From a virus (Duplodnaviria; Heunggongvirae; Uroviricota; Caudoviricetes), in the IMG/VR virus record IMGVR_UViG_3300022871_000009, positions 1 through 64,000 of that record: a stretch of DNA of 64,000 bases. One strand, 5' to 3'. Positions 6,970-61,349 of the stretch are shown here, piece by piece (position 1 is the stretch's first letter; each line of letters starts with the position of its first letter). Below the pieces are notes generated by a model. That model made no database searches. It was not told the origin of the DNA and worked only from the letters and a program-made list of their open reading frames with translations. The position numbers and the translations under genes were made by a program.

Positions 6970-6972
6970 AGT

Positions 6973-8720: not shown

Positions 8721-8750
8721 GTAGTTAACATTTATTCAAAAGGTCGAATC

Positions 8751-9239: not shown

Positions 9240-9250
9240 ACTAGTTAAGT

Positions 9251-10099: not shown

Positions 10100-10110
10100 T
10101 TAGGAAGCTT

Positions 10111-25223: not shown

Positions 25224-25249
25224 AAGAAGAATATTATTCTTCTTTTTTT
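25224..25249. terminator. bidirectional rho-independent terminator between convergent genes
   Basis: AAGAAGAATA/TATTCTTCTT stem flanked by A-run and T-run. Overlaps the last codons (KKEE) of the minus-strand 1798-aa gene. Confidence 0.5.
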
Positions 25250-39974: not shown

Positions 39975-41366
39975 CTAGATTATTATACTTTCTGATGGTG
40001 TCCAGGAATCTAAATTACTGTTTCTTTTGATTGATGTAGTTTTCATGCGTCCAATTGCCATGTTGAATGACTCAAGTGACATTGCAGCATCGTTTCTACC
40101 TAATTTCGGAGCAGCTCTAAACATCATGTAATCGACAAGGCAAAAATGATTGTTCTCTGGCAAATCAATAGTATCGTACATTGAAGTCAGTTCGGCCCCT
40201 TTTTGTATGTATCTGATTGTATAAGTACTGGTTGCTGTCGGGGTAGGTGTGAAGCCAATATAGGCTCCTCTTAGATAGTATTTTATTGTATTGGCTGAAT
40301 CTTCATCATAAGCAGAAACTCCACTTAATTTTATAGCAGATAAAGAGACTTTATCTCCAGAATCTACTATGGAGAGCAAATCAGAGAAACTGTCTGGAAG
40401 TGCGTATTCCTTTGTTCCACTAATAATTGACAGGTCATATTCGTCAGAACCAGTATATTCTCTATTTACTAGATTTAATTCGTTTCTTGCTATCGCATAT
40501 GCTTCACTTAGCCAAGCAAAAGCATCCTCATTGGTGACAAGTTTAAGCTGTTTGTTGTTTAATAAACTGAAAAAATTCTCGATTATAGAGGATGCGGAGT
40601 TAGAATCGAAACCACCATACGGAATAGCATTTGAATTCTGCGAGGAAGACTCTGTATAAGAATTATAAAATGTAAACCAGCCAAAACCAGTTGAATTATC
40701 TGCGTCTCTGACAGATGTCAGAAATAACGATGTATCAATATCTAGATAATTTGTAAGTACATTTATATATCCAGTGCCTATTGTCTTATCACTTTCTACT
40801 ACACCAGACCCATTATCTATCTCAAAATATTTTTCTCTTACTGTTGTAACTACATAAGACCCCTTATTATTATCATCAAAATTTTCGCCATTTATTACTA
40901 TGGTATAACCATCTTGTACGTATTTATCTATTTCAGGGTTTGTACCGGTATCATCATATGTGTACCTCATTAGTGAGCCAGAAGGGTTTGTTATGTCGAA
41001 TTGTGTAGTCTCGTCTCCTAAAACAACTGTATCTCTAACTGGGTCGGTAGATGAGAAAGTTGCTGTAGTTGTGTGGAAAAACCTTACTTGGTCGTAATGT
41101 ATAATTGTGACTTTTGTACTTTCACTATGAGGGAAGCTAGTCGCGATATTTATAGTTAAAGTGTCAGAAGCACGTGTTATAGCTGTGACTCTTCTTATTT
41201 CTGCGTAAGCAGAGCCAAATTCACCTATTAAAATAAAGTCATTTGGTCTATATTCCTCGCTATTTGTAACAACCAAAGAAGTTTCACCTGATTGGTAATT
41301 AGCACTCAAATGAGAATATTTAGCATTTTGAGTTAGATTTCGATTATCTGCTGTCAATGTAGGCAT
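39975..41366 (-). CDS. hypothetical structural protein (463 aa)
   Basis: ORF preceded by the conserved promoter element. Confidence 0.4.
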   Translation of the reverse strand: MPTLTADNRNLTQNAKYSHLSANYQSGETSLVVTNSEEYRPNDFILIGEFGSAYAEIRRVTAITRASDTLTINIATSFPHSESTKVTIIHYDQVRFFHTTTATFSSTDPVRDTVVLGDETTQFDITNPSGSLMRYTYDDTGTNPEIDKYVQDGYTIVINGENFDDNNKGSYVVTTVREKYFEIDNGSGVVESDKTIGTGYINVLTNYLDIDTSLFLTSVRDADNSTGFGWFTFYNSYTESSSQNSNAIPYGGFDSNSASSIIENFFSLLNNKQLKLVTNEDAFAWLSEAYAIARNELNLVNREYTGSDEYDLSIISGTKEYALPDSFSDLLSIVDSGDKVSLSAIKLSGVSAYDEDSANTIKYYLRGAYIGFTPTPTATSTYTIRYIQKGAELTSMYDTIDLPENNHFCLVDYMMFRAAPKLGRNDAAMSLESFNMAIGRMKTTSIKRNSNLDSWTPSESIII

Positions 41367-41417: not shown

Positions 41418-44400
41418 CTAAAATCCATAGTATCCTCCTCCAAAGACTCCTTGTGTGGATATTCCTCCACGTCTTCCTAGTGTTTCTAAACCACCAGTTA
41501 TCTCCATGTCTTCTATATAGAAACTTATTGTCGATGTGCTGGAACTGGTAGAACTAGATGTACTTGATGAAGTTGATGAACTAGTAGAACTTGAGGTGCT
41601 TGAAGAAGTCGAGCTAGTTGAGCTAGATGTACTTGAACTTGTAGAGCTAGATGTGGATGAACTTGTAGAGCTAGATGTGGATGAACTTGTAGATGACGTA
41701 CTAGAAGATGTACTAGAGCTTGTAGAACTAGAGGTAGAGCTAGATGTGGATGAACTTGTAGAACTAGAGGTAGAGCTAGATGTGGATGAACTTGTAGAAC
41801 TGGAAGTAGAGCTAGATGTGGATGAACTTGTACTGGATGACGTACTAGAAGATGTTGAGCTAGATGTTGAACTTGATGTAGAACTAGAAGTTGATGAGCT
41901 TGTGCTAGAAGAAGTACTAGACGATGTTGAGCTAGATGTCGAACTAGAAGTACTAGATGATGTGCTAGAGCTAGTAGAACTGGATGTACTAGATGATGTA
42001 GATGAAGTACTAGAACTAGTAGAACTAGAAGTACTCAAACTTGTAGAACTAGATGTTGAGGAAGTGCTTGAACTAGTAGAGCTAGAAGTAGAAGAACTAG
42101 TACTAGAGGTAGAACTAGAAGTGCTTGAACTAGTAGAGCTAGAAGTAGAAGAAGTAGAACTGGATGTGGAACTAGAAGTAGAAGAGCTTGTAGAACTTGT
42201 ACTAGATGATGTACTAGAGCTAGTAGAGCTAGAAGTAGAAGAGCTTGTAGAACTTGATGTACTAGAAGAAGTACTAGAGCTAGTAGAGCTAGAAGTAGAA
42301 GAGCTTGTAGAACTTGATGTACTAGAACTGGTAGAGGAGCTAGTAGAGCTTGATGTACTAGAACTAGTAGAGCTTGATGTACTAGAACTAGTAGAGCTTG
42401 ATGTTGATGATGATGTACTAGAACTAGTACTAGAACTAGTTGACGATGATGTTGAAGAACTAGTAGAACTTGATGTGCTAGAACTAGTGGAACTTGACGT
42501 GCTAGAACTAGTGCTAGAGCTAGTTGATGATGATGTAGATGATGAAGTACTACTAGACGTGCTTGAACTAGTAGAACTAGTAGAACTCGATGTACTTGAA
42601 GTTGACGAACTAGTAGAACTAGAAGTAGATGAACTAGTAGAACTAGAAGTAGATGAAGTTGTTGTTTCCGCTAACCTTCTCTTGTAATTCCCCCATGTTA
42701 AATCTCCTACATTACCATCAGGAATAAAACTGTCTTTAACTGTAGAACTGAATCCAGAATGCTGATAGACGTTACACCCAACGGGAATAAATATTGAGTA
42801 ATTAGTAGAATAAAAATCATTTTTGTCTAAAGTGAGGCCACCAGGCAAGGTAGAAGGAGTATTAAATGTGTCTGCTATTGTAGAAGTATAACCAGAGTGT
42901 CTATATACTTTATCCGACCCTCCGTCGATACTGAATAAGCGAGCAACATTTACTGTAAAACCTTTTGGCGAGCTGCTAGGAGAAGAAAAACTATCACTGA
43001 CTGTAGATGAAAAACCATTGTGAACGTATATTTTGTCAGTACCATTATCTATACTATAGAAATTTGTATAATCAATAGTTACACCTTGAGGACTGTCACT
43101 AGGCGAAGAAAAACTGCTAAGTATAGTAGAAGTGAAACCAGAATGTCTGTATATAACATCGGAAGAACTATCTCCACTATAGACATCTCCCAAGAATGTA
43201 AGGCCATATGGAGATGTACTTGGACTACTGAAACTATCAATTACAGTGGAAGAGAACCCAGAATATTTATAAATTTTGTCATCAGAATACTGAACGCCCA
43301 TCAAATTCTCGTATAGTGTGGTTGTTGTAGAAGTACTAGAAGAAGTAGAACTAGAAGTACTAGACGAAGTAGATGATGTACTAGAACTGGTAGAACTAGA
43401 TGTTGATGAGGTTGTCTCAAACCTAGCGTCACCGCCCCAGGCGATACCACCTAAGTTCCCAGTTGGCTGAGCAAAACTATCTAAAATTGTAGAAGTAAAT
43501 CTGTTATATTTGACAAAATCAGACACTGAACTTCCATAGGTATCATTTGCATCTCGTGCAACGCTAGAACGGACAGTAGCAAATGAATCAGAAATTGTTG
43601 AAGTAAAACCTGAATGGCGATATATTCCATATTCAACAGAAAGAGTAGCTCCACCTGAATACAGTCTATAAAGATTACTCTCTAATCCAGAAGGATATGG
43701 TATTATTGTTCCGAAACTATCTAAAATTGTAGAAGTAAATCCTGAATGTTTATAAATTTTAGCTGTATTTTTATCTACACTATATAAATCACCAGGTTCA
43801 GTCATAGTTAATTTTACATACCGAGTCGATGGCGAAGAGAAACTATCAATCATTGTAGTAGAAAAACCAGAGTGTTTATAAATTATATTTAATCCAGCAT
43901 CCCCACTGTACATTAATTTATCTTTCCAAGAAAGTCCAGCAGGTATGTTTGCTGATGGCACCGTAAAACTATCTAAAATAGTAGAACTAAAACCAGAATA
44001 TCTAAAAAATAAATCACCATAAACATGCACTGAATAAAAGTCGTCATTCAATAGTGTTGTACTAGAGGAAGTAGAACTAGATGTGGAACTAGTAGAAGAA
44101 CTAGTAGAGCTAGAAGTAGAAGAACTTGTCGAACTCGATGTTGATGATGAAGTAGACGAAGATGTAGATGATGTTGAGCTAGAAGTACTAGAAGAAGTCG
44201 AACTAGTTGAGCTAGATGTTGAAGAACTAGTAGAACTTGTGGTAGTTATTGCTAATCTTTTTACATAGTTCTCCCAGGCAAGACCAAAATTATTTGTTGC
44301 TGTTCTGAACACATCTAAAATTGTAGAACTAAATCCTGAATGTTTATATGCTTTTCTGTAACTAGCACTTCGTGGGTTAAAAATAGTGCTGTAAAAGTCT

Positions 44401-47400
44401 ATACTATCAGTTGTAAACCCACCAGGCCGTGTCCCTGGAGCAGCGAAACTATCTGATATCGTTGATGTGAATCCTGAATGTCTATACATTCTATCACTAC
44501 CGTCAATCAGACTAAACAACCTATACTTATTTACCGCTATATCTCTAGGATTGATAGCTTCAGCCGCAAAACTATCAGAAATTGTTGAAGAAAAACCGCT
44601 GTGGATGTAAATTTTTTCAGTGGTCAAGTCAGTGCTATACATCCTGTCTCTATCCGCTTCTAAGCCGTATGTTTCACTAGCAGCAGCAGCAAAATTATCA
44701 AGTAGTGTAGAACTAAATCCTGAAAAGTGATAAATAAGGTTGGTATTGTAGTTAGTACTATATAAATCTTTATTAAATGCTACACCTAACGAGCCAATTG
44801 CACTAACACCCCCTAAGCTCTCTAAAATAGTAGAACTAAATCCTGAATATTTGTAGATAATAGAAGGGGATATCGCTATCAAATTATCATCATACAATAT
44901 AGAGGTTGAACTTGATGTAGATGAACTTGTAGAACTTGATGTTGATGAGGTTGAAGAACTTGTGCTTGAACTTGTAGAACTTGATGTTGATGAAGTACTA
45001 GAACTTGTTGAACTAGAGGTTGAGCTAGATGTGCTAGAAGATGTACTAGAAGAAGTAGAACTAGAAGTACTAGAAGTACTAGAACTAGTAGAACTAGAAG
45101 TACTAGAACTTGTTGAACTAGAAGTTGATGATGAAGTTGATGAACTAGTAGAACTAGTAGAACTTGATGTACTAGAAGAAGTAGAAGAACTAGTTGAAGA
45201 AGTACTAGAAGAAGTAGAACTTGATGTACTAGAAGAAGTACTAGAAGTAGAAGAACTAGTTGAAGAAGTAGAAGTTGAACTAGATGTACTTGATGTACTA
45301 GAAGAAGTTGAGCTTGAAGTAGATGAGCTCGTTGAAGAAGTACTAGAACTTGTAGAACTAGATGTTGATGAACTTGTTGAAGATGTACTAGAACTTGTTG
45401 AACTAGAAGTACTAGAAGTGCTAGACGAAGTTGATGAACTTGTAGAACTAGAAGTAGATGAACTTGTAGAACTAGAAGTAGATGATGAAGTACTCGATGA
45501 GGTACTAGAACTTGTTGAACTAGAAGTACTAGAAGAAGTTGAACTAGATGTTGATGAACTTGTAGAACTAGAAGTAGATGAACTTGTAGAACTAGAAGTA
45601 GATGAACTTGTAGAACTAGAAGTACTTGAAGAAGTACTGGAAGTAGACGAACTAGTCGAACTAGATGTAGAAGATGAAGTTGAACTAGAAGTTGACGAAC
45701 TTGTTGAACTAGAAGTAGAAGAACTGGTAGAAGAAGTACTAGAACTTGTGCTTGAACTTGTAGAACTAGAAGTGCTTGAACTTGTAGAACTAGAAGTGCT
45801 TGAACTTGTTGAACTAGAAGTTGAACTTGTACTTGATGACGTACTAGAAGACGTACTAGAACTTGTAGAGCTAGATGTGCTTGATGACGTACTAGAGCTA
45901 GTTGAACTAGATGTAGAACTAGAAGTTGATGAGCTCGTGCTAGAAGAAGTAGAACTAGAAGTAGATGAACTTGTAGAACTAGTAGAACTAGAAGTAGATG
46001 AGCTCGTGCTTGATGATGTACTAGAAGACGTACTAGAACTTGTTGAACTAGATGTTGAAGAACTTGTACTTGATGATGTAGATGAACTAGTACTAGAAGA
46101 AGTAGAACTTGATGTAGAAGAACTTGTAGAAGATGTTGTGCTAATTTCTCTACTCCAAATATTATCCCATTCTACTCCTAATAGATATTCAGGTGTACCA
46201 TCGAATGAATCCATTATAGTAGTACTAAATCCTGCGTGTTTATAGGAATAGGCACTATTACCATCTGTAGTATATATGTGATACCCATCAAATGTTAAAC
46301 CAGCAATATCTGGAGTGACAGCTGCCATGCTATTTAAGACAGTAGAACTAAAACCAGAATGTTTATATACTTTTTCTGTTGCATCGTCAGCGGAATAAAT
46401 ATTTTTTCCGTCTAATGTTATATCTAACGAACCACTACTAGGAGTTGAGAAACTGTTTAAAATTGTAGAACTAAAACCAGAATGCCTATATAAGACATCG
46501 CTGTCTATATCTCCAGAATAAATTCTATCGTCTCCCCAAGTTAACCCCCACGGTTTAATTGAAGGAGAAGAAAAACTATCTGAAACAGTTGAACTAAAAC
46601 CAGAATGTTTAAATATTCTATTAAGACCGACATCAGATGTATAGGAATCTTCTCCATCAGAAGTAACGCCAAAACCATACGAAGATGGGGAACTAAAACT
46701 ATCAGTAATTGTGGATGAAAAACCTGAATATTTGAATACCTCTGTGTTCCAGTAGTATCCTATTCCAATATAATTATTTGTTTCTAATCTTCCACCATAA
46801 TCCATGTAGTCGATGCCAGAACCTTGGTTGGCTACACCTGTAAAGCTATCCAAAACAGTAGATGTAAATCCAGAATGTTTGTAGAATTCGTCAGGAGATT
46901 GCTCAGCGGTAATAAAATGTTGGCCAGTGTAAGTAAGTCCTGTACGTGAGCCAACTGCTGCGAAACTCTCTAAGATTGTTGATGTAAATCCAGAATGTTT
47001 GTAAACTTTATCTATGCCTGTATCTGTACTATATAAGTCAGTTGCATCGTAGGTTAAATCGTATGGGTTCAAATTTGGACTAGAAAAACTATCACTAATC
47101 GTAGATGAGTAACCGCTGTGTTTATAAATTTGGTCTGATACACCGTCTGTGCTATATAATGTATCTTTTTGAACTGTCAAACCTCTAGGGTCAGCAGATG
47201 GTGATGCAAAACTATCTAAAATTGTAGATGTAAATCCAGAATGTTGATATATATATCCTGCCAAATCTCCTGACAAAATATATTTGCTATCCCATGTTAC
47301 ACCACGAGGAGCAGTACTTGGAGTTGAAAAACTATCTACTACTGTAGAACTGAATCCTGAATATTTGTATACCTTACTACTAATAGCGTTATCATCAATC

Positions 47401-50400
47401 TCTATTAATTCGTCGAATATAATTGTGGTAGAGGAACTAGTTGAACTAGAAGTAGAAGAACTAGTTGAAGATGTGCTTGATGATGTGCTAGAACTTGTAG
47501 AGCTAGATGTTGAACTTGATGTACTAGAACTAGTTGAACTTGAAGTACTAGAAGTACTAGATGATGTACTAGAAGAAGTACTAGAAGTAGAAGAACTAGT
47601 AGAACTAGAAGTACTAGATGATGTAGAGGATGTACTAGAACTAGTTGAACTAGAAGTAGAAGAACTAGTAGAACTTGTACTAGACGATGTACTAGAAGTT
47701 GAAGTAGAGGAACTAGTTGAACTAGTAGAACTAGAAGTTGATGAACTAGTAGAACTGGAAGTACTAGATGTACTTGATGATGTAGAACTAGATGTACTTG
47801 ATGAAGTTGATGAGCTAGTAGAACTAGATGTACTAGAAGATGTACTCGAACTAGTAGAGCTAGAAGTAGATGATGTTGATGAACTAGTAGAACTAGATGT
47901 AGATGATGATGTACTAGAACTTGTAGAACTTGATGTGCTGGATGTAGTTTCAGCTGTTCTTGACCAATAATCTTCCCATGTAATGCCACGGCTATCGGTC
48001 CCAATTGCCGATGTATCTATTGTGTCTATAATTGTAGAAGAAAAACCTCTGTGCTTATTAACACCGTAGTCTTTTGTATTATAAAGATTTTTTCCATCCC
48101 ATGTGATACCGACCCCAGTGGCACCCTCAAAACTATCTACAACAGTAGAACTAAATCCAGAGTATTTGAAAATAGCTGCATCAGGAAGATTCTGAGCATA
48201 TATATTTGCTCCATCCATTGTTATATCTGCAGGTAAGAATTGTGTAAATGAATCTAGAATAGTAGAACTAAACCCAGAATGTCTGTATATTTTATCCCAA
48301 TAATCAGAACTATAAATTCTTTCATCTCCGTAAACAACACCCCAAACTGACTTAGGCATGCCGAAACTATCTAAAATAGTAGAGCTAAATCCAGAATGGT
48401 GATATATGTCACGTGTAGAATAATTAGCACTATAAATATCAAAGCCATCGTACGAAAGTCCTGAAGGACTAGTAGAAGGAGAGCCGAATGAATCTAACAC
48501 TGTTGATGAGAATCCACTAAATTTATATATCTTATCAGTATCATCGTTAGTCATCATTAAATTTTCGATGCCGAGTCTCTTTCCTATACTTTCATATTCT
48601 ATACCTGTAGGTGTAGTTGAAGGAGTACTAAAACTACTCACAATTGTTGATGTAAATCCTGAATGTTTGTACATTTTTCCTGGAGGACCACTTGCATAAA
48701 TATCTCCTTCTTTCAAAGTAATGCCGACTGATGGGAAGTTAGCCAGATTGGTAAAACTACCCAATATAGTTGATGTGAATCCTGAATGTTTGTAGACTGT
48801 TTCTGTAAAGTAATCTGAACTATACGTATCATCCCCATCTTGTGTGATACCAGTAGGTGCATTTGAAGGGCTGTTGAAGCTGTCAGAGATAGTAGTAGAG
48901 AACCCAGAATGCTGGTAAAGTTTTCCAGCAGTATAATCTACACTATAAATATTTACTGTATCATGTGTTAATCCTCTTGGGGCAATTGATGGGCTGCTAA
49001 AACTATCTAAGATAACCGAACTAAACCCAGAATGTTTATACATTTTTGTGACTAACATGTCCATGTCAGAATCAGAACTGTAAGCATTTACGCCGTCCCA
49101 AGTTACGCCCTCTGGCACAGGAGAAGGACTGCTAAAACTGTCAGAAATTGTGGAAGAGAATCCTACATGTCTGTAAAGTTTTCCGCTAATAGAATCTGCA
49201 CTCAAGAAGTTATCAAACAAAATTGTTGTCGAACTGGAAGTTGATGAGCTTGTGCTAGAAGAAGTCGAACTAGAAGTTGAAGAGCTTGTAGAACTAGAAG
49301 TAGAGGAAGTAGTAGAAGAACTTGTTGAGCTAGAAGTAGAGGAGCTAGTTGAACTAGAGGTAGAGGAGCTAGTCGAACTAGTTGAACTAGATGTACTAGA
49401 AGAAGTGCTAGAGCTTGTTGAGCTAGAGGTACTAGAAGAAGTAGAACTTGTAGAACTAGAAGTTGATGAACTTGTGCTAGAACTAGTAGAACTAGAAGTA
49501 CTTGTTGTAGTTGTTGTGCCTACTCTAGATGAGTAATGACCCCAAGTGATGTCAAAATCATAATCGCTAGGAATGAAACTATCTAATATTGTAGATGAAA
49601 AACCAGAGTGTTTATAATCCAATCTAGATTCACTAACCCATGGTAAAGCATTAGTAGAATAAATATATTTTCCATCGTATGCCAATCCACGAGGCATTGA
49701 AGACGGAGATGCGAAGCTACTTTGGATTGTAGAAGTAAATCCAGAATGTTGATAAATTTTATCAGAAGCAGTATCTGTACTAAATAATCTATATTTATTA
49801 GAAGTAAGTCCATTCGGAGCGCTTGATGGACTGCTAAAACTGTCTGCAATTGTGGAACTAAACCCTAAATGTTGGTATATCTTATCTGAAACATAATCAC
49901 TACTAAATAAAGCAGTATCATTTATAGTTACACCACCCAGATATCCACTTGGAGAACTAAAACTATCTAGAATTGTTGTTGAAAAACCAGAGTGTTTGTA
50001 CACTGCGTCATTAGTACTTACAAAATCACCAGCTGTATAAAGATACGTTTTGTCTTTAGTAACTCCAGTTGTATATAGAGCAGCTGCAAAACTATCTTTC
50101 ACTGTAGAAGAAAATCCAGAATATTTATAAACATTATGGACATCTCCAGTATTTAGTCCAATCGAAATTAAATCGTCTAATAGAGAAGTGGAACTAGATG
50201 TACTAGAAGAAGTTGAACTAGATGTACTAGAACTGGTAGAAGATGATGTGGATGAACTAGTAGAGCTAGTACTTGAACTAGTAGAGCTAGTAGAAGATGA
50301 AGTACTAGAAGAAGTTGAACTAGAAGTACTAGAAGTAGTAGTTGTAGAATAAAATGAAACTCTTTTATTATAGTTATCCCAAGTAAATCCATAAATAGAA

Positions 50401-52412
50401 GGATTAAAGTAAAATGATAATGAATCTAATATAGTTGTACTAAATCCTGCGTGTTTATACGCATATCGTGTTACTGCATCACTAGAATAAAAATTATTTT
50501 TATTAGTTGTTAGTGCTGTTGTATAATTAGCAGGGGGTTTAAGATAATCTTTAAGTGTTGATGAAAAACCAGAATGTTTATATATTTTGTCAGACACATT
50601 ATCAGTACTATATAAATTATAATAATCTAATGTAACATCTTTTAAATTTATGCTAGGAGATGAAAAACTATTTAAAACTGTGGATGAAAAACCAGAATAA
50701 TGATATATTCTTCCACGGTCAGGTGCACAAAAAAGTGCACCGTTTATTGCTAAACCTCTCACAACACGAGTATTAGAACCAGAGAAACTATCCAGTACAG
50801 TTGTACTAAATCCAGAATGTTTGTAAATTTGGTGACTAATTCCAGTTTCTCTAGAATATAAATAATTTAAATCTTTAGTAACTCCGTTAGATGATGATTC
50901 TACAGTAGGAGGAATTATAGATTCAATAACTGTAGTAGAAAAACCACTAAACTTATAAATTAATTTATCAGAACACGCAGCAATCAAATTATCTAGAAAT
51001 AATGATGTACTTGAACTAGTGGAGCTAGACGTTGACGAACTTGTTGAACTTGTAGAAGAACTAGTAGAACTCGTAGAACTAGATGTACTAGAACTTGTTG
51101 AAGAACTAGAAGTAGATAAGCTAGTCGAACTAGAAGTGGATGAACTAGTCGAACTAGAAGTGGATGAACTAGTAGAACTAGAAGTTGAGGAACTAGTAGA
51201 ACTCGATGTTGAGGAACTAGTAGAACTTGATGTAGAACTTGATGTACTAGAAGAAGTCGAACTAGAAGTAGACGAGCTAGTAGAACTAGTAGAGCTTGAT
51301 GTTGAGGAGCTAGTAGAACTTGAAGTGCTAGAAGATGTACTAGAACTAGTAGAGCTAGAAGTTGAAGACGACGTACTCGATGTTGAAGAACTAGTAGAAC
51401 TAGATGTTGAAGAGCTAGTAGAACTTGATGTTGAAGAGCTAGTAGAACTTGATGTTGAAGAGCTAGTAGAACTTGATGTAGAAGATGATGTACTTGAAGA
51501 AGTCGAACTAGAAGTAGAAGAACTAGTTGACGATGTACTGGAAGAAGTCGAACTAGAAGTAGATGAGCTAGTTGACGATGTACTCGAAGAAGTCGAACTA
51601 GATGTACTAGAGCTAGTAGAACTAGTAGAAGAACTAGTAGATGATGAAGTAGAAGATGTGGTATATCTAGCTGCAGCATCCTGCCATGAGGCTGCTGTAG
51701 AATAGGTTGATGAGTCAAAACTATCTAAAATTGTGGATGAAAATCCTGCATGTTTATAAACATCTCCAGGTGTAAAGTCAGAACTAAAAATATTAGTTCC
51801 ATCACCAGACATATCACCAATGTTGTCACCTGGTGAAGAGAAACTATCGGTAATTGTAGTAGAGAATCCAGAATGTTTAAATAATGAATCAGGAGTATTA
51901 CCATCTGCGCTATAAAAAATTCCAGATACATATGTAAAGCCCTCTGGTCTAGTAGAAGGGCCAGTAAAACTATCTAACACCGTAGAACTGAATCCATCAT
52001 GTTTATATATTTTACTAAGAGACACATCTGTACTATAAGTATTAGTCCCATCATCTGTGACAGCATACGTTTCTGTGCCTGGAGCTGAAAAGCTGTCGCT
52101 AATTGTAGTAGAAAATCCTGAATGTTTATAGACTCTTTCCGAATTCGCATCTGCAGACAAAACACCAGTAGTTGAATATTCAACTCCAAAAGGAAAAGTA
52201 CTTGGAGTAGAAAAACTATCTATTATTGTAGAACTGAATCCAGAATACTTATAAATTTGTTGGAGTGAGTATTCAGAAGTAATTGTATTATTACTATCTC
52301 CAGCAGCTTTAGACACCTCTTCATTATCAACAAAAAGATTACCTTTAATTGCTTCAAGGTAATCTTCGTCTGATAACTCGTCTGAATTTTTATGGTCGAG
52401 GTGGTCCGTCAT
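41418..52412 (-). CDS. giant 3664-aa modular fibre protein
   Basis: About 50 copies of a 38-42-aa repeat around (I/V)YKHSGFSSTILDSF...P.G(L/V)T.DG.N.YS.D. They fall into blocks of 5,5,5,10,10,5,5,5. Each block is capped by a (L/I)TW(D/E).Y..R motif and followed by an (SSST)n tract of about 30 to over 300 residues. One continuous ORF. Confidence 0.7.
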   Translation of the reverse strand: MTDHLDHKNSDELSDEDYLEAIKGNLFVDNEEVSKAAGDSNNTITSEYSLQQIYKYSGFSSTIIDSFSTPSTFPFGVEYSTTGVLSADANSERVYKHSGFSTTISDSFSAPGTETYAVTDDGTNTYSTDVSLSKIYKHDGFSSTVLDSFTGPSTRPEGFTYVSGIFYSADGNTPDSLFKHSGFSTTITDSFSSPGDNIGDMSGDGTNIFSSDFTPGDVYKHAGFSSTILDSFDSSTYSTAASWQDAAARYTTSSTSSSTSSSTSSTSSSTSSSTSSSTSSTSSSTSSSTSSSTSSTSSSTSSSTSSSTSSSTSSSTSSSTSSSTSSSTSSSTSSSTSSSTSSSTSSTSSSTSSSTSSSTSSSTSSSTSSSTSSSTSSTSSSTSSSTSSSTSSSTSSSTSSSTSSSTSSSTSSSTSSSTSSSTSSSTSSSTSLSTSSSSTSSSTSSSTSSTSSSTSSTSSSTSSSTSSSTSLFLDNLIAACSDKLIYKFSGFSTTVIESIIPPTVESSSNGVTKDLNYLYSRETGISHQIYKHSGFSTTVLDSFSGSNTRVVRGLAINGALFCAPDRGRIYHYSGFSSTVLNSFSSPSINLKDVTLDYYNLYSTDNVSDKIYKHSGFSSTLKDYLKPPANYTTALTTNKNNFYSSDAVTRYAYKHAGFSTTILDSLSFYFNPSIYGFTWDNYNKRVSFYSTTTTSSTSSSTSSSTSSSTSSTSSSTSSTSSSTSSSTSSSTSSSTSSSTSSSTSLLDDLISIGLNTGDVHNVYKYSGFSSTVKDSFAAALYTTGVTKDKTYLYTAGDFVSTNDAVYKHSGFSTTILDSFSSPSGYLGGVTINDTALFSSDYVSDKIYQHLGFSSTIADSFSSPSSAPNGLTSNKYRLFSTDTASDKIYQHSGFTSTIQSSFASPSSMPRGLAYDGKYIYSTNALPWVSESRLDYKHSGFSSTILDSFIPSDYDFDITWGHYSSRVGTTTTTSTSSSTSSSTSSSTSSSTSSTSSSTSSSTSSSTSSSTSSSTSSTSSSTSSSTSSSTSSSTSSSTTSSTSSSTSSSTSSSTSSSTSSSTSSSTTILFDNFLSADSISGKLYRHVGFSSTISDSFSSPSPVPEGVTWDGVNAYSSDSDMDMLVTKMYKHSGFSSVILDSFSSPSIAPRGLTHDTVNIYSVDYTAGKLYQHSGFSTTISDSFNSPSNAPTGITQDGDDTYSSDYFTETVYKHSGFTSTILGSFTNLANFPSVGITLKEGDIYASGPPGKMYKHSGFTSTIVSSFSTPSTTPTGIEYESIGKRLGIENLMMTNDDTDKIYKFSGFSSTVLDSFGSPSTSPSGLSYDGFDIYSANYSTRDIYHHSGFSSTILDSFGMPKSVWGVVYGDERIYSSDYWDKIYRHSGFSSTILDSFTQFLPADITMDGANIYAQNLPDAAIFKYSGFSSTVVDSFEGATGVGITWDGKNLYNTKDYGVNKHRGFSSTIIDTIDTSAIGTDSRGITWEDYWSRTAETTSSTSSSTSSSTSSSTSSSTSSSTSSTSSSTSSSTSSSTSSSTSSSTSSSTSSSTSSSTSSTSSSTSSSTSSSTSSTSSSTSTSSTSSSTSSTSSSTSSSTSSSTSSTSSSTSSSTSSSTSSTSSSTSSSTSSTSSSTSSSTSSSTSSSTSSSTSSSTSSTSSSTSSSTSSSTTIIFDELIEIDDNAISSKVYKYSGFSSTVVDSFSTPSTAPRGVTWDSKYILSGDLAGYIYQHSGFTSTILDSFASPSADPRGLTVQKDTLYSTDGVSDQIYKHSGYSSTISDSFSSPNLNPYDLTYDATDLYSTDTGIDKVYKHSGFTSTILESFAAVGSRTGLTYTGQHFITAEQSPDEFYKHSGFTSTVLDSFTGVANQGSGIDYMDYGGRLETNNYIGIGYYWNTEVFKYSGFSSTITDSFSSPSSYGFGVTSDGEDSYTSDVGLNRIFKHSGFSSTVSDSFSSPSIKPWGLTWGDDRIYSGDIDSDVLYRHSGFSSTILNSFSTPSSGSLDITLDGKNIYSADDATEKVYKHSGFSSTVLNSMAAVTPDIAGLTFDGYHIYTTDGNSAYSYKHAGFSTTIMDSFDGTPEYLLGVEWDNIWSREISTTSSTSSSTSSSTSSSTSSSTSSSTSSSTSSSTSSSTSSSTSSSTSSSTSSSTSSTSSSTSSSTSSSTSSSTSSSTSSSTSSSTSSSTSSSTSSSTSSSTSSSTSSTSSSTSSSTSSSTSSSTSSSTSSSTSSSTSSTSSSTSSSTSSSTSSSTSSSTSSSTSSSTSSTSSSTSSSTSSSTSSSTSSSTSSSTSSSTSSSTSSSTSSSTSSSTSSSTSSSTSSSTSSSTSSSTSSSTSSSTSSTSSSTSSSTSSTSSSTSSSTSSSTSSTSSSTSSSTSSSTSSTSSSTSTSSTSSSTSSTSSSTSSSTSSSTSSTSSSTSSSTSSSTSSTSSSTSSSTSSSTSSSTSSSTSSSTSSTSSSTSSSTSSSTSSSTSSSTSSSTSSTSSSTSSSTSSSTSSTSSSTSSSTSSSTSILYDDNLIAISPSIIYKYSGFSSTILESLGGVSAIGSLGVAFNKDLYSTNYNTNLIYHFSGFSSTLLDNFAAAASETYGLEADRDRMYSTDLTTEKIYIHSGFSSTISDSFAAEAINPRDIAVNKYRLFSLIDGSDRMYRHSGFTSTISDSFAAPGTRPGGFTTDSIDFYSTIFNPRSASYRKAYKHSGFSSTILDVFRTATNNFGLAWENYVKRLAITTTSSTSSSTSSSTSSTSSSTSSSTSSTSSSTSSSTSSSTSSSTSSSTSSSTSSTSSSTSSSTTLLNDDFYSVHVYGDLFFRYSGFSSTILDSFTVPSANIPAGLSWKDKLMYSGDAGLNIIYKHSGFSTTMIDSFSSPSTRYVKLTMTEPGDLYSVDKNTAKIYKHSGFTSTILDSFGTIIPYPSGLESNLYRLYSGGATLSVEYGIYRHSGFTSTISDSFATVRSSVARDANDTYGSSVSDFVKYNRFTSTILDSFAQPTGNLGGIAWGGDARFETTSSTSSSTSSSTSSTSSSTSSSTSSSTSTTTTLYENLMGVQYSDDKIYKYSGFSSTVIDSFSSPSTSPYGLTFLGDVYSGDSSSDVIYRHSGFTSTILSSFSSPSDSPQGVTIDYTNFYSIDNGTDKIYVHNGFSSTVSDSFSSPSSSPKGFTVNVARLFSIDGGSDKVYRHSGYTSTIADTFNTPSTLPGGLTLDKNDFYSTNYSIFIPVGCNVYQHSGFSSTVKDSFIPDGNVGDLTWGNYKRRLAETTTSSTSSSTSSSTSSSTSSSTSSTSSSTSSTSSSTSSSTSSSTSSSTSSSTSSSTSSSTSSSTSSSTSSSTSSSTSSSTSSSTSSSTSSSTSSSTSSSTSSSTSSSTSSSTSSSTSSSTSSSTSSSTSSSTSSSTSSSTSSSTSSSTSSSTSSSTSSTSSSTSSSTSSSTSSTSSSTSSSTSSSTSSTSSSTSSSTSSSTSSTSSSTSLSTSSSTSSSTSSTSSSTSSSTSSSTSSSTSSSTSSSTSSSTSSSTSSSTSSSTSSSTSSSTSSSTSSSTSSSTSSSTSSSTSSSTSSSTSSSTSSSTSSSTSSSTSSSTSSSTSSTSSSTSSSTSSSTSSSTSSSTSSSTSSTSSSTSSSTSSSTSSSTSSSTSSSTSTISFYIEDMEITGGLETLGRRGGISTQGVFGGGYYGF
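41521..42660. repeat. (AGT/AGA/ACT)n low-complexity DNA encoding the C-terminal (SSST)n tract (approximate bounds)
   Basis: Imperfect triplet repeats. Produces a spurious antisense E/L/V-rich ORF at 41536..42687. Confidence 0.7.
44890..46150. repeat. (SSST)n-encoding triplet-repeat tract (approximate)
   Basis: Same repeat class. Spurious antisense ORF 44962..46245. Confidence 0.7.
47425..47950. repeat. (SSST)n-encoding triplet-repeat tract (approximate)
   Basis: Same repeat class. Spurious ORFs 47284..47970 (+) and 47405..48004 (-). Confidence 0.7.
50990..51660. repeat. (SSST)n-encoding triplet-repeat tract (approximate)
   Basis: Same repeat class. Spurious ORFs 51019..51705 and 50993..51718. 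Shorter tracts lie near 43320-43430, 44070-44260, 49225-49510 and 50190-50340. Confidence 0.7.
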
Positions 52413-53802
52413 AACTTGGACGCTGTGACGTTACCTTCAGTAGAAGGTCGTTCACGCTTTTAATGTCCAAGGTTTTCATATGTTTACAAAGTAAACCGAA
52501 ATGAGTATATAGTTTGTATCCCAATTTCTGGGCTTGTTGTGAAAATACAAAATCTTCTGAATATTCGACAGTTCCGTTAGAATGGTAGGTAAAGTAAAAT
52601 GGTCTATCCATCTTCTCTAAAACCTCTCTCTTAATCATAAACATTCCACCTGTGACTACATCAGTCTCTTCGACTCCAGAACCGTAATACGGCCTGTATT
52701 TGCCCTCTGAGTCGTATCTGTGAGCCACTGGTATAGGTGCCATAAGCCCATCATCATCAACTTTCGTCGTTAGACAGGTTGGGGCCACTACGTCCTTATC
52801 AGCTTTGATAAGTTCTCTCAGTGTCTCTAAAGGAGGAATAATATCATTATCAATCATCACAAGATAATCAAAATAATCTTCTAGAAAGCTTTTTACAATA
52901 AAGTTCCGGGCATTATCCAATGGAAACATGTGTGACGCAGGGAATATCTTAACGACAAACTCTGGGTCGTGTGTCCATTGAATCAGCCTCATGGCCAGTT
53001 CAATATGTAATTTACCATCTGCTGTAGGTAGGCCTATGAAAATCCTAGGCTTTTCGCCTAGCTCATCTTTCCACTTAGCACGGTGTTTATTATATTGGCC
53101 AACAGCATACTTCTTAGAGTAGTCGACATCGTGGTCGAACAATTCTCTAAAAGCAGCTGAACCATAATGATACATGAACGAGCTTCGCACGGCTCCAATT
53201 TTGTAACCAAGCTTTTTCACTCTAAGACATATATCATTGTCATCGCCACCACCAGTACCAAATCTCTCGTCTAAGATGTGTCCTTCTCCCAAACCGAATT
53301 CTTTATTATGAGAAACCAGTTTATCAACTACTTCTCTTGTCATTGGGACACACACACCTTTTACCTCAGGAGCCTCTTCTATGCCGCCGAGATGAGAGTA
53401 TTCAATACTTTGTTTACTATCGGCCTCGCCTATTAGCGGTGCCAATATACCGTACTCTGGATTTTTCTTAAACGCTTCAACGATTTTCTCTATCCAACCT
53501 GGAACGCAGACAACGTCTGAATTCAAAAGAACTACATATTCACTATCGGGGGATACTTTAGCAAAACCTGCATTTATGGCACCGGTGTAACCCTTAGCTT
53601 CTTCATGATAGACTGACGCTGCAAAGGTATACTTTGATAACATCTCTTTCATCTCATCATCTTTTCCGTCTTGGACAATGATGAGCTCTAAGTTTGGGGT
53701 GTAACCGAATACGCTTTCAATCGCTACTCTGGTCAAATCAGGTCTAAACCTGACTGGCATTATTATTGAAACCCTCGGAAATGAATTTAAAATTTCCTTC
53801 AT
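52390..53802 (-). CDS. tandem two-domain glycosyltransferase (two GT-A/GT2-like halves)
   Basis: N-terminal half SIIMPVRFRPDLTRVAIESV...IIVQDG (GT2). Second half IFIGLPTADGKLH...VMIDNDIIPP. Immediately upstream of the giant fibre gene, with overlapping stop and start. Confidence 0.6.
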   Translation of the reverse strand: MKEILNSFPRVSIIMPVRFRPDLTRVAIESVFGYTPNLELIIVQDGKDDEMKEMLSKYTFAASVYHEEAKGYTGAINAGFAKVSPDSEYVVLLNSDVVCVPGWIEKIVEAFKKNPEYGILAPLIGEADSKQSIEYSHLGGIEEAPEVKGVCVPMTREVVDKLVSHNKEFGLGEGHILDERFGTGGGDDNDICLRVKKLGYKIGAVRSSFMYHYGSAAFRELFDHDVDYSKKYAVGQYNKHRAKWKDELGEKPRIFIGLPTADGKLHIELAMRLIQWTHDPEFVVKIFPASHMFPLDNARNFIVKSFLEDYFDYLVMIDNDIIPPLETLRELIKADKDVVAPTCLTTKVDDDGLMAPIPVAHRYDSEGKYRPYYGSGVEETDVVTGGMFMIKREVLEKMDRPFYFTYHSNGTVEYSEDFVFSQQAQKLGYKLYTHFGLLCKHMKTLDIKSVNDLLLKVTSQRPSYDGPPRP

Positions 53803-54274
53803 ATGCTTTTATTTCATTTATTTCATATAGGACATCATCATAGATATGTGAATTAACAATGATGTCTTGATTATACTCGCCAATCTGCCGAAGAGGCTGA
53901 ATTCGTGATTGGTGAGCCACATACCAAAAACCCATATCCCTTAATATCGGATATGTGCTTGCGGTAATTTGAAACCCAGGTGCTCTAAACCCGAATTTGT
54001 TAGGTAGGAGTGACGATAGTCTGCCATAAGATTCTTTTATTAATTCTTCGCGATTATCTCGCTCACATTCAGGTGGGTCGTCGTGCAACCAACCATGAAT
54101 TCCTACCTCTACCCAGTCTTTATTTTTAACTAGCCAGTTCTCAATCAATGAGTCCACTTCTCCAGCTATAGGAAAGACTGTAACTTTAAAATCTGGACGA
54201 ACTATTTTAAACTCCTCCAGTTTGTACAAATTACTAATGTATCTCTTTGATATATCATCAACAGTGAAATACAT
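53744..54274 (-). CDS. hypothetical protein (possible carbohydrate deacetylase-like)
   Basis: 176-aa ORF. Weak by-eye resemblance only (GIHGWLHDD). Confidence 0.3.
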   Translation of the reverse strand: MYFTVDDISKRYISNLYKLEEFKIVRPDFKVTVFPIAGEVDSLIENWLVKNKDWVEVGIHGWLHDDPPECERDNREELIKESYGRLSSLLPNKFGFRAPGFQITASTYPILRDMGFWYVAHQSRIQPLRQIGEYNQDIIVNSHIYDDVLYEINEIKAYEGNFKFISEGFNNNASQV

Positions 54275-54280
54275 AACTAG

Positions 54281-54730
54281 TTAGGCTTGTTTTGCTTGTC
54301 TTTTTACTTTAGCTTCAGAAATTCTGTCTGAGAATCTCTTGTTGTAACTGACACCCTTTACATCTTTAGATGGGTCAATAGCGTCAAGTTCATCAGTTGT
54401 GAATTCAAGACCTAGTTGACTTTTTATAGTCAAACGTTTAATCTTTGCTTCGTCAGTGATTTGTTCTGATAACTCTTCGTTATCATTTGAAAACGCGATA
54501 GCTTCTATTTCTGACATATCAGAAACTCTATCTTTGTCGCCAAGTATAGTTTTCCAATCGACACCGTCTCTTATTTCTAGTAACAAATCTGTTGATTTGA
54601 TACCTTCTGCAGATTCTTCTTCTGCATACAAGTGGTCTGTAATAAAAGGTTCTAGGCTACTATATCCAGAAGGATATTTCATGCCGCCTTCACCATGGGG
54701 TAGGCTTATCTTGATGTAGTTCATACACAA
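54281..54730 (-). CDS. hypothetical protein
   Basis: 149-aa ORF. Confidence 0.4.
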   Translation of the reverse strand: MCMNYIKISLPHGEGGMKYPSGYSSLEPFITDHLYAEEESAEGIKSTDLLLEIRDGVDWKTILGDKDRVSDMSEIEAIAFSNDNEELSEQITDEAKIKRLTIKSQLGLEFTTDELDAIDPSKDVKGVSYNKRFSDRISEAKVKRQAKQA

Positions 54731-54747
54731 ATTAAATTAAATGAATA

Positions 54748-55071
54748 TTATTTTTTGTCTTTTTCTTCATCTTTCTCTTCTTCATCTAGTATAAGTAGAA
54801 TTTTTCCAGCTACGAGTGGACCGTAAGCTTTATCAGTCTCTACCATCTTTTTTACTTTTTTAATGTCTGCTTTGTCTATGTCTACTACTTCTTCTGTATA
54901 AAAGCGTTGAGCTAAAACGTAAATTTTGACTTTCTCCATTTCGTAACCGCTTTGTCTTGGTGCTAAAAGGATATTAGCCATAGCCATACCCACAGTTAGG
55001 ACTTCTCCGTCTGGGGATTTTAGTGCTTCTCCCTTGAAACTTGTTATCTCCTCGTTTGTTCTAATCTTCAT
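54748..55071 (-). CDS. hypothetical protein
   Basis: 107-aa ORF downstream of the conserved promoter element. Confidence 0.4.
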   Translation of the reverse strand: MKIRTNEEITSFKGEALKSPDGEVLTVGMAMANILLAPRQSGYEMEKVKIYVLAQRFYTEEVVDIDKADIKKVKKMVETDKAYGPLVAGKILLILDEEEKDEEKDKK

Positions 55072-55113
55072 ATATTTTGAGATTAAGTTAATAAAATTTT
55101 TTAATCTAGTGAT

Positions 55114-55145
55114 ATTATAGCATAAGTCCTTATCTTCTCGTCTAC
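55114..55145 (-). promoter_or_regulatory. promoter-like site with the AGGACTTATGCTATAAT element
   Basis: Reverse complement ...gagaagatAAGGACTTATGCTATAAT. -35 is weak. Confidence 0.4.
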
Positions 55146-55537
55146 ATTTTTTCCCTAAGCATGGTAGAAGATATGTCTTTTGTGTAAGGGAGGTAAATTA
55201 CAGGCGGGCCCAAGCCTTCACCAGTGTAGTTACCCTTCCAGTCATCTCCGACAAATAACACGTCTGCATCGTATTTATCAATAGCATCTGTCTTGCTGAA
55301 GTCGCGAGACTGGATATCTATTCCATCTATAACATTTATAGTCTCTAGGTGTGCTCGTCTAGTATGAAAATCTAACGGAGGCTCATATCCTTTGTGAGCA
55401 CGAATGTACTCATCGCTAGACATACAAACAATCAACTTCTCACAATACCTCTTTGCTTCTATGAATAGGTTGATATGTCCGTAGTGTAGCGGAGAGAAAG
55501 CTCCGAAAGTTAGTCCAACTTTATATTTTGCATGCAT
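55142..55537 (-). CDS. cytidylyltransferase-family nucleotidyltransferase (glycerol-3-phosphate/choline-phosphate cytidylyltransferase-like)
   Basis: GAFSPLHYGH (HxGH motif). Fits the short approximately 130-aa CTP_transf_like proteins. Probable start at MHAKYKVG; the track ORF extends to 55594. Confidence 0.6.
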   Translation of the reverse strand: MHAKYKVGLTFGAFSPLHYGHINLFIEAKRYCEKLIVCMSSDEYIRAHKGYEPPLDFHTRRAHLETINVIDGIDIQSRDFSKTDAIDKYDADVLFVGDDWKGNYTGEGLGPPVIYLPYTKDISSTMLREKM

Positions 55538-56924
55538 AATATTGACTTGTACAAGCCCTGCGAGACCAGGCCATAGGCCCATAAATAGGCTCACTCCACG
55601 TTTTTCCGTAGTTAGACTCTAGATATTCGTCCACAGGGTTAGGAATTAAGTACCCTTTTCCATCATATTTTATCATTTTTGCATTTTCGAACCACTCTTT
55701 TGGATGTTTTGCACAGAACTTCTGCCGCTTTCTACCCTTGAGAATGTTCATTGTGGCGTCATCTTCATCATAATAGATGGGGTCTAGGTCATTTCTTACC
55801 CCATATTTCTTGAAACTTAGAGTCCTAACGTAGGTTTCTGGGCTTTCATACCCATCTTTTTTCTTTACTCTAGGTATATCCTTTTTTATCTTTATATCAG
55901 TAAAGCCAGCTTTTGCGAACACATTCACATCAATTTTGTGCGTATCTCTAGCATCTATGATGAAATCATTATCCCAGTCATATTTCAGAATGTCTCCGTC
56001 TCTCACTATGCCTAGGCATGTCCCGAAAGCTAAAAAGTGTTTTACCCCCATTTTGTCTAGCAAATCGCTAGTTTCCCTGAGTGCTTTCTTGGCATTCTCA
56101 CGACCAACAGGCACACGCTTGTCTCCTCCACGAAGGTAGTCCTCTACAGTCATATCAGGCTCGCGCCTGAACGTGTCTCTTACTTCTTGTGGGTGCATCT
56201 CAGTAACTGGCTTAGGTAGACGCCAAAGAGCCTCGGAGTTGCGTGAGTTTCCCTTCCAATGGTCATTTCGCCAGTTTCGTTTTTCTATAGTAAGACTACA
56301 CAAATGTGTCAATGTTCTTGTGTCACCCATTCTGTCCTGTTTTGTAAGAGGATGGTAATTGCAAGCAGTTCTATAAGGAATAGCAGTTAACTCAGTAAAA
56401 AACTTAAAAATACGGGTATGCCCTGTCATGCTTTTATTGTGGATTGTCATCATATCACCGAAGACATCTACAGGTTTCATTGTTAAAGCTTTTTTTGTCT
56501 TATCAGCCCAAAACTTCTCAAGTAACTCAGGTAAGTGGTCATTAAATATCTCGTCAGAATCAGGCCAAATCAACATATCTACTTTCTCTCCACCTTTTTC
56601 AACGTCCCTCATATACTGGAATACTGTCTCTCTTATTGGCCCCTGCAGGGGTTTAAACCTGTGGAAAAGACCTCTGCGTGAAGATTCCTGCTCTGGAGTT
56701 GCTCTGGGCAACCCCGAATGAGCTATTCTGATTCTATCTGGATATCTGTCCTTATATTCCTGAACAATCTTCATTGTAGTTTCGTCTTCGTTATCTATCA
56801 TAAGCAATACCCAATCACACCATTTTAATAAGTTCGGGATTGAGTGATGTAAAATACCACCACATCTAGCGACAAGGGTAGCTCCCACGATATTTATATC
56901 TTGTAAAAAATCTCTATGCTTCAT
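55521..56924 (-). CDS. fusion protein: GT-A-like glycosyltransferase N-terminal domain plus LicD-family phosphotransferase C-terminal domain
   Basis: C-terminal FLAFGTCLGIVRDGDILKYDWDNDFII matches the LicD nucleotidyltransferase-fold motif (GTxLGxxRxxxxIPWDDDxD). The N-terminal region resembles a GT2 fold. Confidence 0.55.
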   Translation of the reverse strand: MKHRDFLQDINIVGATLVARCGGILHHSIPNLLKWCDWVLLMIDNEDETTMKIVQEYKDRYPDRIRIAHSGLPRATPEQESSRRGLFHRFKPLQGPIRETVFQYMRDVEKGGEKVDMLIWPDSDEIFNDHLPELLEKFWADKTKKALTMKPVDVFGDMMTIHNKSMTGHTRIFKFFTELTAIPYRTACNYHPLTKQDRMGDTRTLTHLCSLTIEKRNWRNDHWKGNSRNSEALWRLPKPVTEMHPQEVRDTFRREPDMTVEDYLRGGDKRVPVGRENAKKALRETSDLLDKMGVKHFLAFGTCLGIVRDGDILKYDWDNDFIIDARDTHKIDVNVFAKAGFTDIKIKKDIPRVKKKDGYESPETYVRTLSFKKYGVRNDLDPIYYDEDDATMNILKGRKRQKFCAKHPKEWFENAKMIKYDGKGYLIPNPVDEYLESNYGKTWSEPIYGPMAWSRRACTSQYYACKI

Positions 56925-57481: not shown

Positions 57482-57489
57482 GCAAATTA

Positions 57490-58686: not shown

Positions 58687-58687
58687 A

Positions 58688-59278: not shown

Positions 59279-59289
59279 ATTTTATCTTT

Positions 59290-60030: not shown

Positions 60031-60034
60031 ATAA

Positions 60035-61348: not shown

Positions 61349-61349
61349 A

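Follow-up and report, generated by a model that had tools for sequence, protein, structure and literature searches.

The window analyzed here is a stretch of 64,000 nucleotides from a virus of the class Caudoviricetes (positions 1 to 64,000 of IMG/VR record IMGVR_UViG_3300022871_000009). Its minus strand carries a giant open reading frame (ORF), 10,995 nt without a stop codon, which encodes ten 5-bladed β-propellers and eight serine/threonine (S/T) linkers of the general form (SSST)n, here called tracts T1 to T8. The explanation that best accounts for the data, to which we assign a probability of about 0.72, is that the ORF is a single fiber gene in which spacer composition is selected, neighboring codons alternate, and the three longest tracts (T1, T5, and T8) undergo in-frame insertions and deletions (indels) of sequence blocks. 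This behavior is ordinary repeat instability, that of an in-frame coding variable-number tandem repeat (VNTR), in an unusual protein.

According to this explanation, the alternating codons would remove 3-nt and 12-nt periodicity from the tracts and hold exact repeats to no more than 57 nt. Blocks of two to five units (24–60 nt) would still become duplicated locally, and such duplications would exist only in the three longest tracts, where replication slippage or short-homology recombination might add or remove 8–53 codons and where one 60-nt unit could be homogenized against its neighbor. Cocirculating and otherwise identical genomes would hence carry fibers of 3601–3664 amino acids, with spacer length shifting by a few percent, the number of binding modules unchanged, and the gene not switched on or off.

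Tract-length alleles in near-identical genomes

All population data derive from exact-sequence look-ups made with the adaptor protein, the upstream glycosyltransferase, and an antisense ORF located in T4. These look-ups returned 24 loci (L002–L025) from 14 sample accessions, 13 of which inform at least one tract. Nine nontract gene segments (6.7 kb) are all present and in the same order across the recovered assemblies, with 0–4 mismatches, and identity to the window outside the tracts is 99.9–100%. For several loci there are 0 mismatches over 11–21 kb, which leaves the tract indels as the sole differences. Judged by this identity, the recovered loci are the same phage as that of the window. 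Other routes yielded little. Megablast searches with both flanks found no match among GenBank phages, scans of IMG/VR revealed no relative of the module and, with the adaptor as the query, one remote relative at 26% identity, and both a protein scan and an exact 38-mer scan of the JGI metagenome contig collection returned nothing. Exact look-up of four antisense ORFs in the protein-cluster collection showed that these sequences are absent there, and the sample accession numbers had no match in the literature.

Tract lengths were taken between unique anchors, and they reveal three length alleles for T1, five for T5, and five for T8 (Table 1). T2, T3, T4, T6, and T7 each have a single length in all 11–12 assemblies that cover them. 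It had been proposed from the window alone that linker length would change in frame and that related genomes would therefore differ in tract length. This expectation is supported for T1, T5, and T8 across public assemblies, with the caveat that these derive from short reads, and it does not hold for the five constant tracts.

Table 1. Lengths (nt) of the three variable tracts in the window and in recovered assemblies; an empty cell denotes no value.
Sequence	T1	T5	T8
Window	660	1242	1137
ERZ27315921	660	1242	1053
ERZ27315525	636	1197	1032
ERZ27316532	636	1083	1137
ERZ27315840	636	1218	1113
ERZ27315937		1218	1113
ERZ27315886	612	1242	1113
JGI 3300023257		1203	1137
JGI 3300005935 and 3300025736		1242	1137
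ERZ27315667	660		1053
ERZ27316076			1089
ERZ27316221	636
ERZ27315773	612

The differences resolve into 11 indel sites, with sizes of 24 nt (five times), 39, 45, 48, 57, 60, and 159 nt. Indels in multiples of 3 or 12 nt had been anticipated; all are indeed multiples of 3, but those of 39, 45, 57, and 159 nt are not multiples of 12. Direct-repeat identity of 20–57 nt flanks 10 of the 11 sites, and the remaining site has essentially none. Moreover, the polymorphic sites rank high among the repeats: they include the top repeat of T1 and, for T8, four of the top five.

One site in T8 is particularly informative regarding mechanism. The two copies of its 60-nt unit are identical in the window, differ by six synonymous changes in 7 assemblies, and have contracted to one copy in two assemblies. 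Taken together, these states indicate that the copies were probably homogenized and that one was then deleted. In addition, a 24-nt indel in T8 and this cluster of six synonymous single-nucleotide polymorphisms (SNPs) exist in all four combinations. The presence of several indels on both SNP backbones is the result of recurrent mutation or recombination, provided that the assemblies are correct. As a separate marker, a 6-nt in-frame deletion within propeller 2 (about positions 50418–50423, minus strand), 75 nt upstream of T2, distinguishes one SNP backbone from that of the window; it is carried by JGI 3300005935, JGI 3300025736, ERZ27315525, ERZ27316532, and ERZ27315773.

Unequal homologous recombination or gene conversion, acting between coinfecting or replicating genomes, might generate the alleles in place of polymerase slippage. 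The overwriting of a 60-nt copy by its neighbor without a change in length fits this route, as do the four combinations of T8 indel and SNP cluster, and the 159-nt indels span distances that are long for slippage. The phage also encodes SbcCD-like nuclease and helicase genes. However, 5 of the 11 events involve one 24-nt unit in a short perfect array, which is the classic pattern of slippage, and homologies of 20–57 nt are short for RecA-type exchange. We consider recombination as the predominant route to be possible, though the less probable choice. Because it yields the same products as slippage, it refines the best explanation and does not truly compete with it.

Several points weigh against the explanation favored here. 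The polymorphism is documented entirely at the level of contigs, all of them assembled from short metagenomic reads. Every variant allele is shorter than that of the window, which fits a deletion bias but also the collapse of repeats. Six contigs end inside T1 or T5, where assemblers struggle. The occurrence of the same indels on both SNP backbones could reflect recurrent mutation, recombination, or a recurrent artifact. Finally, slippage and unequal recombination leave end products that look alike.

The shorter variants, the contig breaks in these six loci, and the identical indels on two backbones are also what would be seen if each tract had one fixed length and the shorter alleles were produced by short-read assemblers collapsing repeats, and most of the junctions do lie inside direct repeats. 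Nevertheless, such an artifact appears improbable. Exact repeats in the gene extend to 57 nt, and every 58-mer of the gene is unique within the window when both strands are considered, so an assembly graph with k of at least 59 is an unambiguous path. The names of the ENA contigs label them with a final k of 141, and thus their graph held no ambiguity to collapse. Likewise, the 39-nt deletion has no homology on which to collapse, and the T8 copy-conversion allele with its six SNPs could not be built from the reads of the other allele. T4, which is 525 nt long with repeats of up to 32 nt, is constant in 12 assemblies, and the same alleles are found in ENA and JGI assemblies of separate samples. 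On balance, these assemblies make it very probable that the tract-length polymorphism is real.

In one sample, ERZ27315667, two contigs (L011 and L022) end about 10 nt apart (positions 45287–45298), bordering the 39-nt T5 indel that was seen in a different sample. Contig ends of this kind are what one would expect were both alleles present together in ERZ27315667.

The consequences for the protein are modest. The ORF remains open in the three complete variant assemblies, which encode 3601, 3604, and 3636 amino acids compared to 3664 in the window and share the same C-terminus. The length range is therefore at most 63 of 3664 residues, and there is no on/off outcome. The original prediction also envisioned the deletion or duplication of whole propeller modules by recombination between tracts, and this finds no support: the number and order of propellers do not differ in any recovered assembly. 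Ongoing module shuffling was considered and rejected, given that there is neither such a variant nor long identity between tracts or between modules. Module number is fixed, pairwise identity among the modules is only 38–53%, and exact matches between tracts do not exceed 39 nt; the gain or loss of modules is therefore not observed over this time span.

Codon order and higher-order repeats

The outer limits of the eight tracts within the giant ORF agree with the span first noted (positions 41521–51660). The tracts range from 33 to 414 amino acids (99–1242 nt) and total 1438 residues, or 39% of the protein, of which 1039 are Ser, 397 are Thr, and 2 are Leu. Runs of Ser are exactly SSS in 303 of 374 cases, giving a peptide period of SSST. 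We infer that the peptide composition of the tracts is under strong purifying selection, because all but 2 of the 1438 residues are Ser or Thr and the SSST period persists while synonymous sites appear randomized or alternated.

The encoding DNA is, as had been noticed, of low complexity, and it is poor in C on the plus strand. However, its repetition is of a higher order and does not reside in triplets. The tracts had been described as long arrays of near-identical AGT, AGA, ACT, and AGC triplets on the coding strand, a description that does not survive codon counting. All six Ser codons (TCT 390, AGT 288, TCA 204, AGC 86, TCG 36, and TCC 35) and all four Thr codons (ACT 197, ACA 166, ACC 20, and ACG 14) are present, with relative frequencies equal to those found outside the tracts. 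The gene is encoded on the minus strand, and AGA, which is TCT read from the complementary strand, does not serve as a codon in the tracts. Perfect runs of one triplet reach 3.7 copies at most, and units of 6 or 9 nt reach at most 2.8 copies.

Indeed, the order of synonymous codons is arranged against short-period repetition. Adjacent pairs of the same residue use the same codon in 14% of cases (0.141) versus 27% (0.272) expected (z = −8), and this depletion is present in all eight tracts. At a distance of four codons, one SSST unit on, the same codon is used at a frequency of 0.238 versus 0.303 expected (z = −5.5), whereas at eight codons, or two units on, there is an excess (0.379 versus 0.302 expected, z = +6.4). 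Neither the propeller-encoding parts of the giant ORF nor the remaining genes of the window show a depletion; in the latter, 30% of adjacent pairs share a codon compared to 26% expected. Consistent with these values, neighboring SSST units have 49% nucleotide identity versus 59 ± 1% in synonymous shuffles. We therefore reject recent growth of the tracts by slippage of the 12-nt SSST unit, since adjacent units are less alike than expected by chance.

A similar codon order was seen in an S/T linker of 116 residues from an unrelated tail protein of the siphovirus type (contig L026, positions 8001–10220, protein P0080, residues 213–328), in which 12 of 51 pairs have the same codon compared to 22 expected. 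To judge from this one sequence, codon alternation may be general to phage S/T linkers.

We can also speculate about function, although we regard the following proposal as rather unlikely. The alternation might be an evolved anti-slippage encoding that lets the phage keep a near-homopolymeric spacer of more than 4 kb, and the perfect 24- to 60-nt islands that escaped it might serve as length-tuning points of an O-glycosylated, mucin-like fiber built by the adjacent conserved cluster of glycosyltransferase (GT) and methyltransferase (MT) genes. If so, spacer length, and with it the reach of the ten lectin-like propellers, would be a selectable and fast-varying trait of a wild phage population.

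Repetition above the level of the SSST unit is abundant. Exact repeats of at least 20 nt are 8–10 times more common in T1, T4, T5, and T8 than in shuffled sequences, and for every such repeat within a tract the offset is divisible by 3. Therefore, indels driven by this homology are automatically in frame. Perfect tandem duplications, scored at periods of 12–120 nt with at least two full copies, make up 27% of T1, 17% of T5, and 25% of T8 and are absent from the other five tracts. The longest of them repeat at 24, 36, and 60 nt. In all eight cases, whether a tract has such duplications distinguishes the three variable tracts from the five invariant ones.

Comparison with known repeat systems

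The closest analog of the giant gene is the in-frame VNTR of surface proteins. In bacterial and fungal surface proteins with VNTRs, including the serine-rich repeat proteins (SRRPs), the alleles of closely related strains differ in length by entire repeat blocks and stay in frame. The giant gene likewise has unit lengths divisible by 3, length polymorphism (in short-read assemblies), and a frame that is kept in all alleles. It shares with these genes the long Ser-rich coding repeats that form a stalk between or under binding domains, and GT genes adjoin it, although its surface exposure is predicted from gene position (the GT cluster, the SU10-type adaptor, and a homolog in a tail block).

The analogy with SRRPs, which was part of the original prediction, extends to in-frame repeat-number polymorphism beside GT genes and does not extend to family membership. 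SRRPs such as Fap1, GspB, and PsrP have two SRR regions of S-x dipeptides flanking one binding region, together with a signal peptide and an LPXTG anchor. Here, the gene belongs to a phage, the motif is SSST, and there are eight tracts and ten modules. On inspection of the translation, the N-terminus (MTDHLDHKNSDELSDEDYLEAIKG) is acidic and is not a signal peptide, and LPXTG is absent from the C-terminus. SRRP genes are also linked to an accessory Sec system, of which neither SecA2 nor SecY2 turned up among the genes annotated here.

Mucins offer a further comparison. The VNTRs of mucin PTS domains, such as that of MUC1, are polymorphic S/T-rich repeats that form densely O-glycosylated extended spacers. 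The tracts also are S/T-rich tandem repeats of polymorphic number, in which 1436 of 1438 residues are Ser or Thr. Unlike mucins, they contain no proline and are encoded by a prokaryotic viral gene, and their glycosylation is a prediction from the gene neighborhood.

Contingency loci, as found in Haemophilus, Neisseria, and Campylobacter, are perfect arrays of 1- to 8-nt units that shift the reading frame or promoter spacing and thereby turn genes on or off. An analogy between these loci and the tracts had been drawn and is not upheld. The resemblance is that a gene for a surface structure, here a predicted one, undergoes repeat-mediated mutation far faster than point substitution. However, the tracts lack a perfect short-unit array and any frameshifting unit, all changes are in frame, and codon order suppresses the 3-nt and 12-nt periodicity on which such arrays depend.

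Collagen-like (Gly-X-Y) sequences in the fiber or antireceptor genes of phages and virophages are likewise low-complexity coding repeats, which lie between the domains of proteins for host recognition (PMC5601072). It has been proposed that such repeats are hot spots of recombination. The tracts differ in being glycine-free S/T spacers of up to 1.2 kb, whereas collagen-like repeats form a triple helix. In ORF 8 of the Guarani virophage, an 81-nt in-frame deletion within collagen-like repeats changed host range (PMC7242381). This precedent, along with the coexistence of several length alleles among near-clonal genomes, might suggest that the tracts are kept mutable in order to vary fiber reach and module number, in the manner of a contingency locus. 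We find this quite doubtful. Codon order suppresses short-period repeats and does not preserve them, variation is confined to 63 or fewer of 3664 residues without an on/off outcome, and exact matches between tracts are no longer than 39 nt. Furthermore, module number is fixed, and because the modules are 38–53% identical, any duplication of them is ancient. Linker variation may be tolerated by the phage or may be useful to it, and usefulness is at this point putative. Overall, the giant gene is not an SRRP gene, a collagen-like linker, or a contingency locus, and we return to ordinary in-frame repeat instability as the best description.

If so, this would be a natural case in which a phage structural gene evolves fastest in the length of its spacers, in frame, and not in sequence. 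The tracts also illustrate that peptide repeats can be far more regular than the DNA that encodes them, which matters for the prediction of hypermutable loci from translations or low-complexity masks. What we find most notable are the architecture of the protein, a codon order that counters repeats, and the conserved, putative glycosylation neighborhood.

Protein architecture and gene neighborhood

The nonrepetitive parts of the giant ORF form nine segments that contain 48 copies of a blade motif of about 42 residues, centered on Y-K-H-S-G-F-S-S-T-I-L-D-S-F and arranged in groups of five (Table 2). An AlphaFold model of one five-motif segment is all-β, with 20 strands, a pLDDT of 93, and a pTM of 0.91, and the modeled module has four-stranded blades in a ring, as expected for a β-propeller. 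Its matches among folds in the PDB are β-propellers, the best 5-bladed ones being glutaminyl cyclases (TM 0.64–0.67, rmsd 2.7 Å). No Pfam family matches the module, a sequence search of the PDB yielded no more than a marginal match to a propeller, and fold searches retrieved generic propellers that provide no clue to function. More than 100 homologs of the module, at 25–54% identity, were found in metagenomes, and some of these have S/T linkers of their own.

Table 2. Coordinates of features of the giant gene and its surroundings.
Feature	Positions	Strand	Description	Source
Giant ORF	41418-52412	minus	3664 aa: ten 5-bladed β-propellers, eight (SSST)n linkers, C-terminal tail	ORF list, translation
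T1 linker	51003-51662	minus	220 aa; length-polymorphic, 660/636/612 nt
T1 repeat island	51403-51479	minus	perfect 24-nt unit, 3.2 copies in window; one or two units fewer in other assemblies
T2 linker	50184-50348	minus	55 aa; length invariant in 11 assemblies
T3 linker	49224-49517	minus	98 aa; identical in 11 assemblies
T4 linker	47424-47948	minus	175 aa; identical in 12 assemblies; no perfect tandem duplication
T5 linker	44901-46142	minus	414 aa; length-polymorphic, 1242/1218/1203/1197/1083 nt
T5 indel site, 24 nt	45748-45809	minus	38 nt flanking homology
T5 indel site, 39 nt	45297-45336	minus	almost no flanking homology
T5 indel site, 159 nt	45043-45221	minus	20 nt homology
T5 indel site, 45 nt	44922-44993	minus	27 nt homology
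T6 linker	44055-44246	minus	64 aa; identical in 11 assemblies
T7 linker	43317-43415	minus	33 aa; length invariant, one SNP in one assembly
T8 linker	41529-42665	minus	379 aa; length-polymorphic, 1137/1113/1089/1053/1032 nt
T8 indel site, 24 nt	42607-42657	minus	27 nt homology
T8 indel site, 24 nt	42340-42404	minus	41 nt homology; both alleles on both SNP backbones
T8 60-nt unit	42211-42327	minus	two copies	sequence rows, allele table
T8 indel site, 57 nt	42061-42153	minus	36 nt homology
T8 indel site, 24 nt	41634-41693	minus	36 nt homology
C-terminal tail	41418-41528	minus	36 residues, nonrepetitive, Gly- and aromatic-rich, …GGISTQGVFGGGYYGF	translation
Antisense ORFs in tracts	41536-42687, 44962-46245, 47284-47970, 51019-51705	plus		public gene calls
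Glycosyltransferase family 2 (GT2) gene	52390-53802	minus	end overlaps giant ORF start by 23 nt	Pfam PF00535, E 2e-25; PHROG glycosyltransferase families
Upstream co-oriented cluster	53744-63402	minus	more GT2 domains, MT domains, cytidylyltransferase-like gene	Pfam on identical genes in L012-L016; PHROG
SU10-type adaptor gene	39975-41366	minus	directly downstream of giant gene	Pfam PF24175, E 2e-16

Pairwise identity among the ten propellers was stated above, and the longest exact stretch common to different modules is 23 nt. Within the double-propeller segments (positions 46143–49223, minus strand), propellers P4 and P6 are 50% identical, as are P5 and P7. This likeness of P4–P5 to P6–P7 is the sole sign of block duplication among the propellers, and it points to a putative ancient duplication of a two-propeller block plus linker. 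The C-terminal tail is identical in all variants and ends in GGGYYGF, and it could be an anchoring or assembly element. Within the giant gene, promoter-like sites show no excess and terminator-like sites are marginally above shuffled sequences. The window contains no tRNA genes.

In most of the public assemblies among L002–L025, gene calls miss the 11-kb minus-strand gene and instead report antisense ORFs of the ELVELD type (212–427 amino acids), sometimes with the propellers annotated as separate small genes. The lengths of these antisense ORFs were the first sign of differences in tract length. The choice of gene callers might be taken to mean that the plus-strand ORFs in the tracts (383, 427, 228, and 228 amino acids in the window) are the real genes and that the giant ORF is fortuitous. 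We consider the likelihood of this to be almost negligible. The minus-strand frame has no stop over its entire length and is open in all variants, and it joins ten modules that have database homologs and a confidently predicted propeller fold. The plus-strand ORFs, in contrast, are confined to the tracts and are the expected stop-free complement of TCN, AGY, and ACN codons. Because gene callers overlook an 11-kb gene in this way, such giant fibers are probably undercounted.

The adaptor gene that adjoins the giant gene appears to place the latter in the virion structural block. Further downstream are large unannotated proteins as well as LysM/lysozyme and M23 peptidase proteins; two large ORFs of the structural block, at positions 25234–30630 (1798 amino acids) and 30635–32986 (783 amino acids), both on the minus strand, have no PHROG match. 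A homolog of the propeller protein on L026, a contig of a distant phage, follows the tape-measure gene, in a tail block. From gene position, we infer that the product of the giant gene is probably a virion fiber of the beads-on-a-string type.

On the other side of the giant gene, the cluster of about 11 kb at positions 52390–63402 includes methyltransferase families Methyltransf_11, 12, 23, 24, and 25. On L027, a contig of another distant phage, a gene for a homologous protein with propellers and S/T linkers likewise follows immediately downstream of a cluster of GT2, methyltransferase, and epimerase genes (positions 1–9831). This arrangement suggests that the GT/MT cluster may be a conserved glycosylation module for proteins that combine propellers with S/T linkers. 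The neighborhood likewise suggests that the S/T linkers may be O-glycosylated by the adjacent cluster, for which the GT2 gene that overlaps the giant ORF encodes a candidate linker-glycosylating enzyme.

In mycobacteriophages, GT genes located next to structural genes are interpreted as adding sugars to virion proteins, and one genome report reads two of its genes in this manner (PMC11256854); the adjoining of phage GT and structural genes is common to both cases. The putative target here differs, however, being internal fiber linkers rather than the ends of capsid or tail-tube proteins, and the cluster is much larger, with methyltransferases, a cytidylyltransferase, and epimerases. The conserved association of large GT/MT clusters with propeller proteins that carry S/T linkers offers a lead on phage virion glycosylation outside mycobacteriophages. 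Elsewhere in the window, three nucleotide-sugar epimerase/dehydratase-like genes (PHROG 540) lie among replication genes, at positions 2093–2995 (minus strand), 17761–18591 (plus strand), and 18597–19556 (plus strand), and for a phage this is an unusually large set of sugar-metabolism genes.

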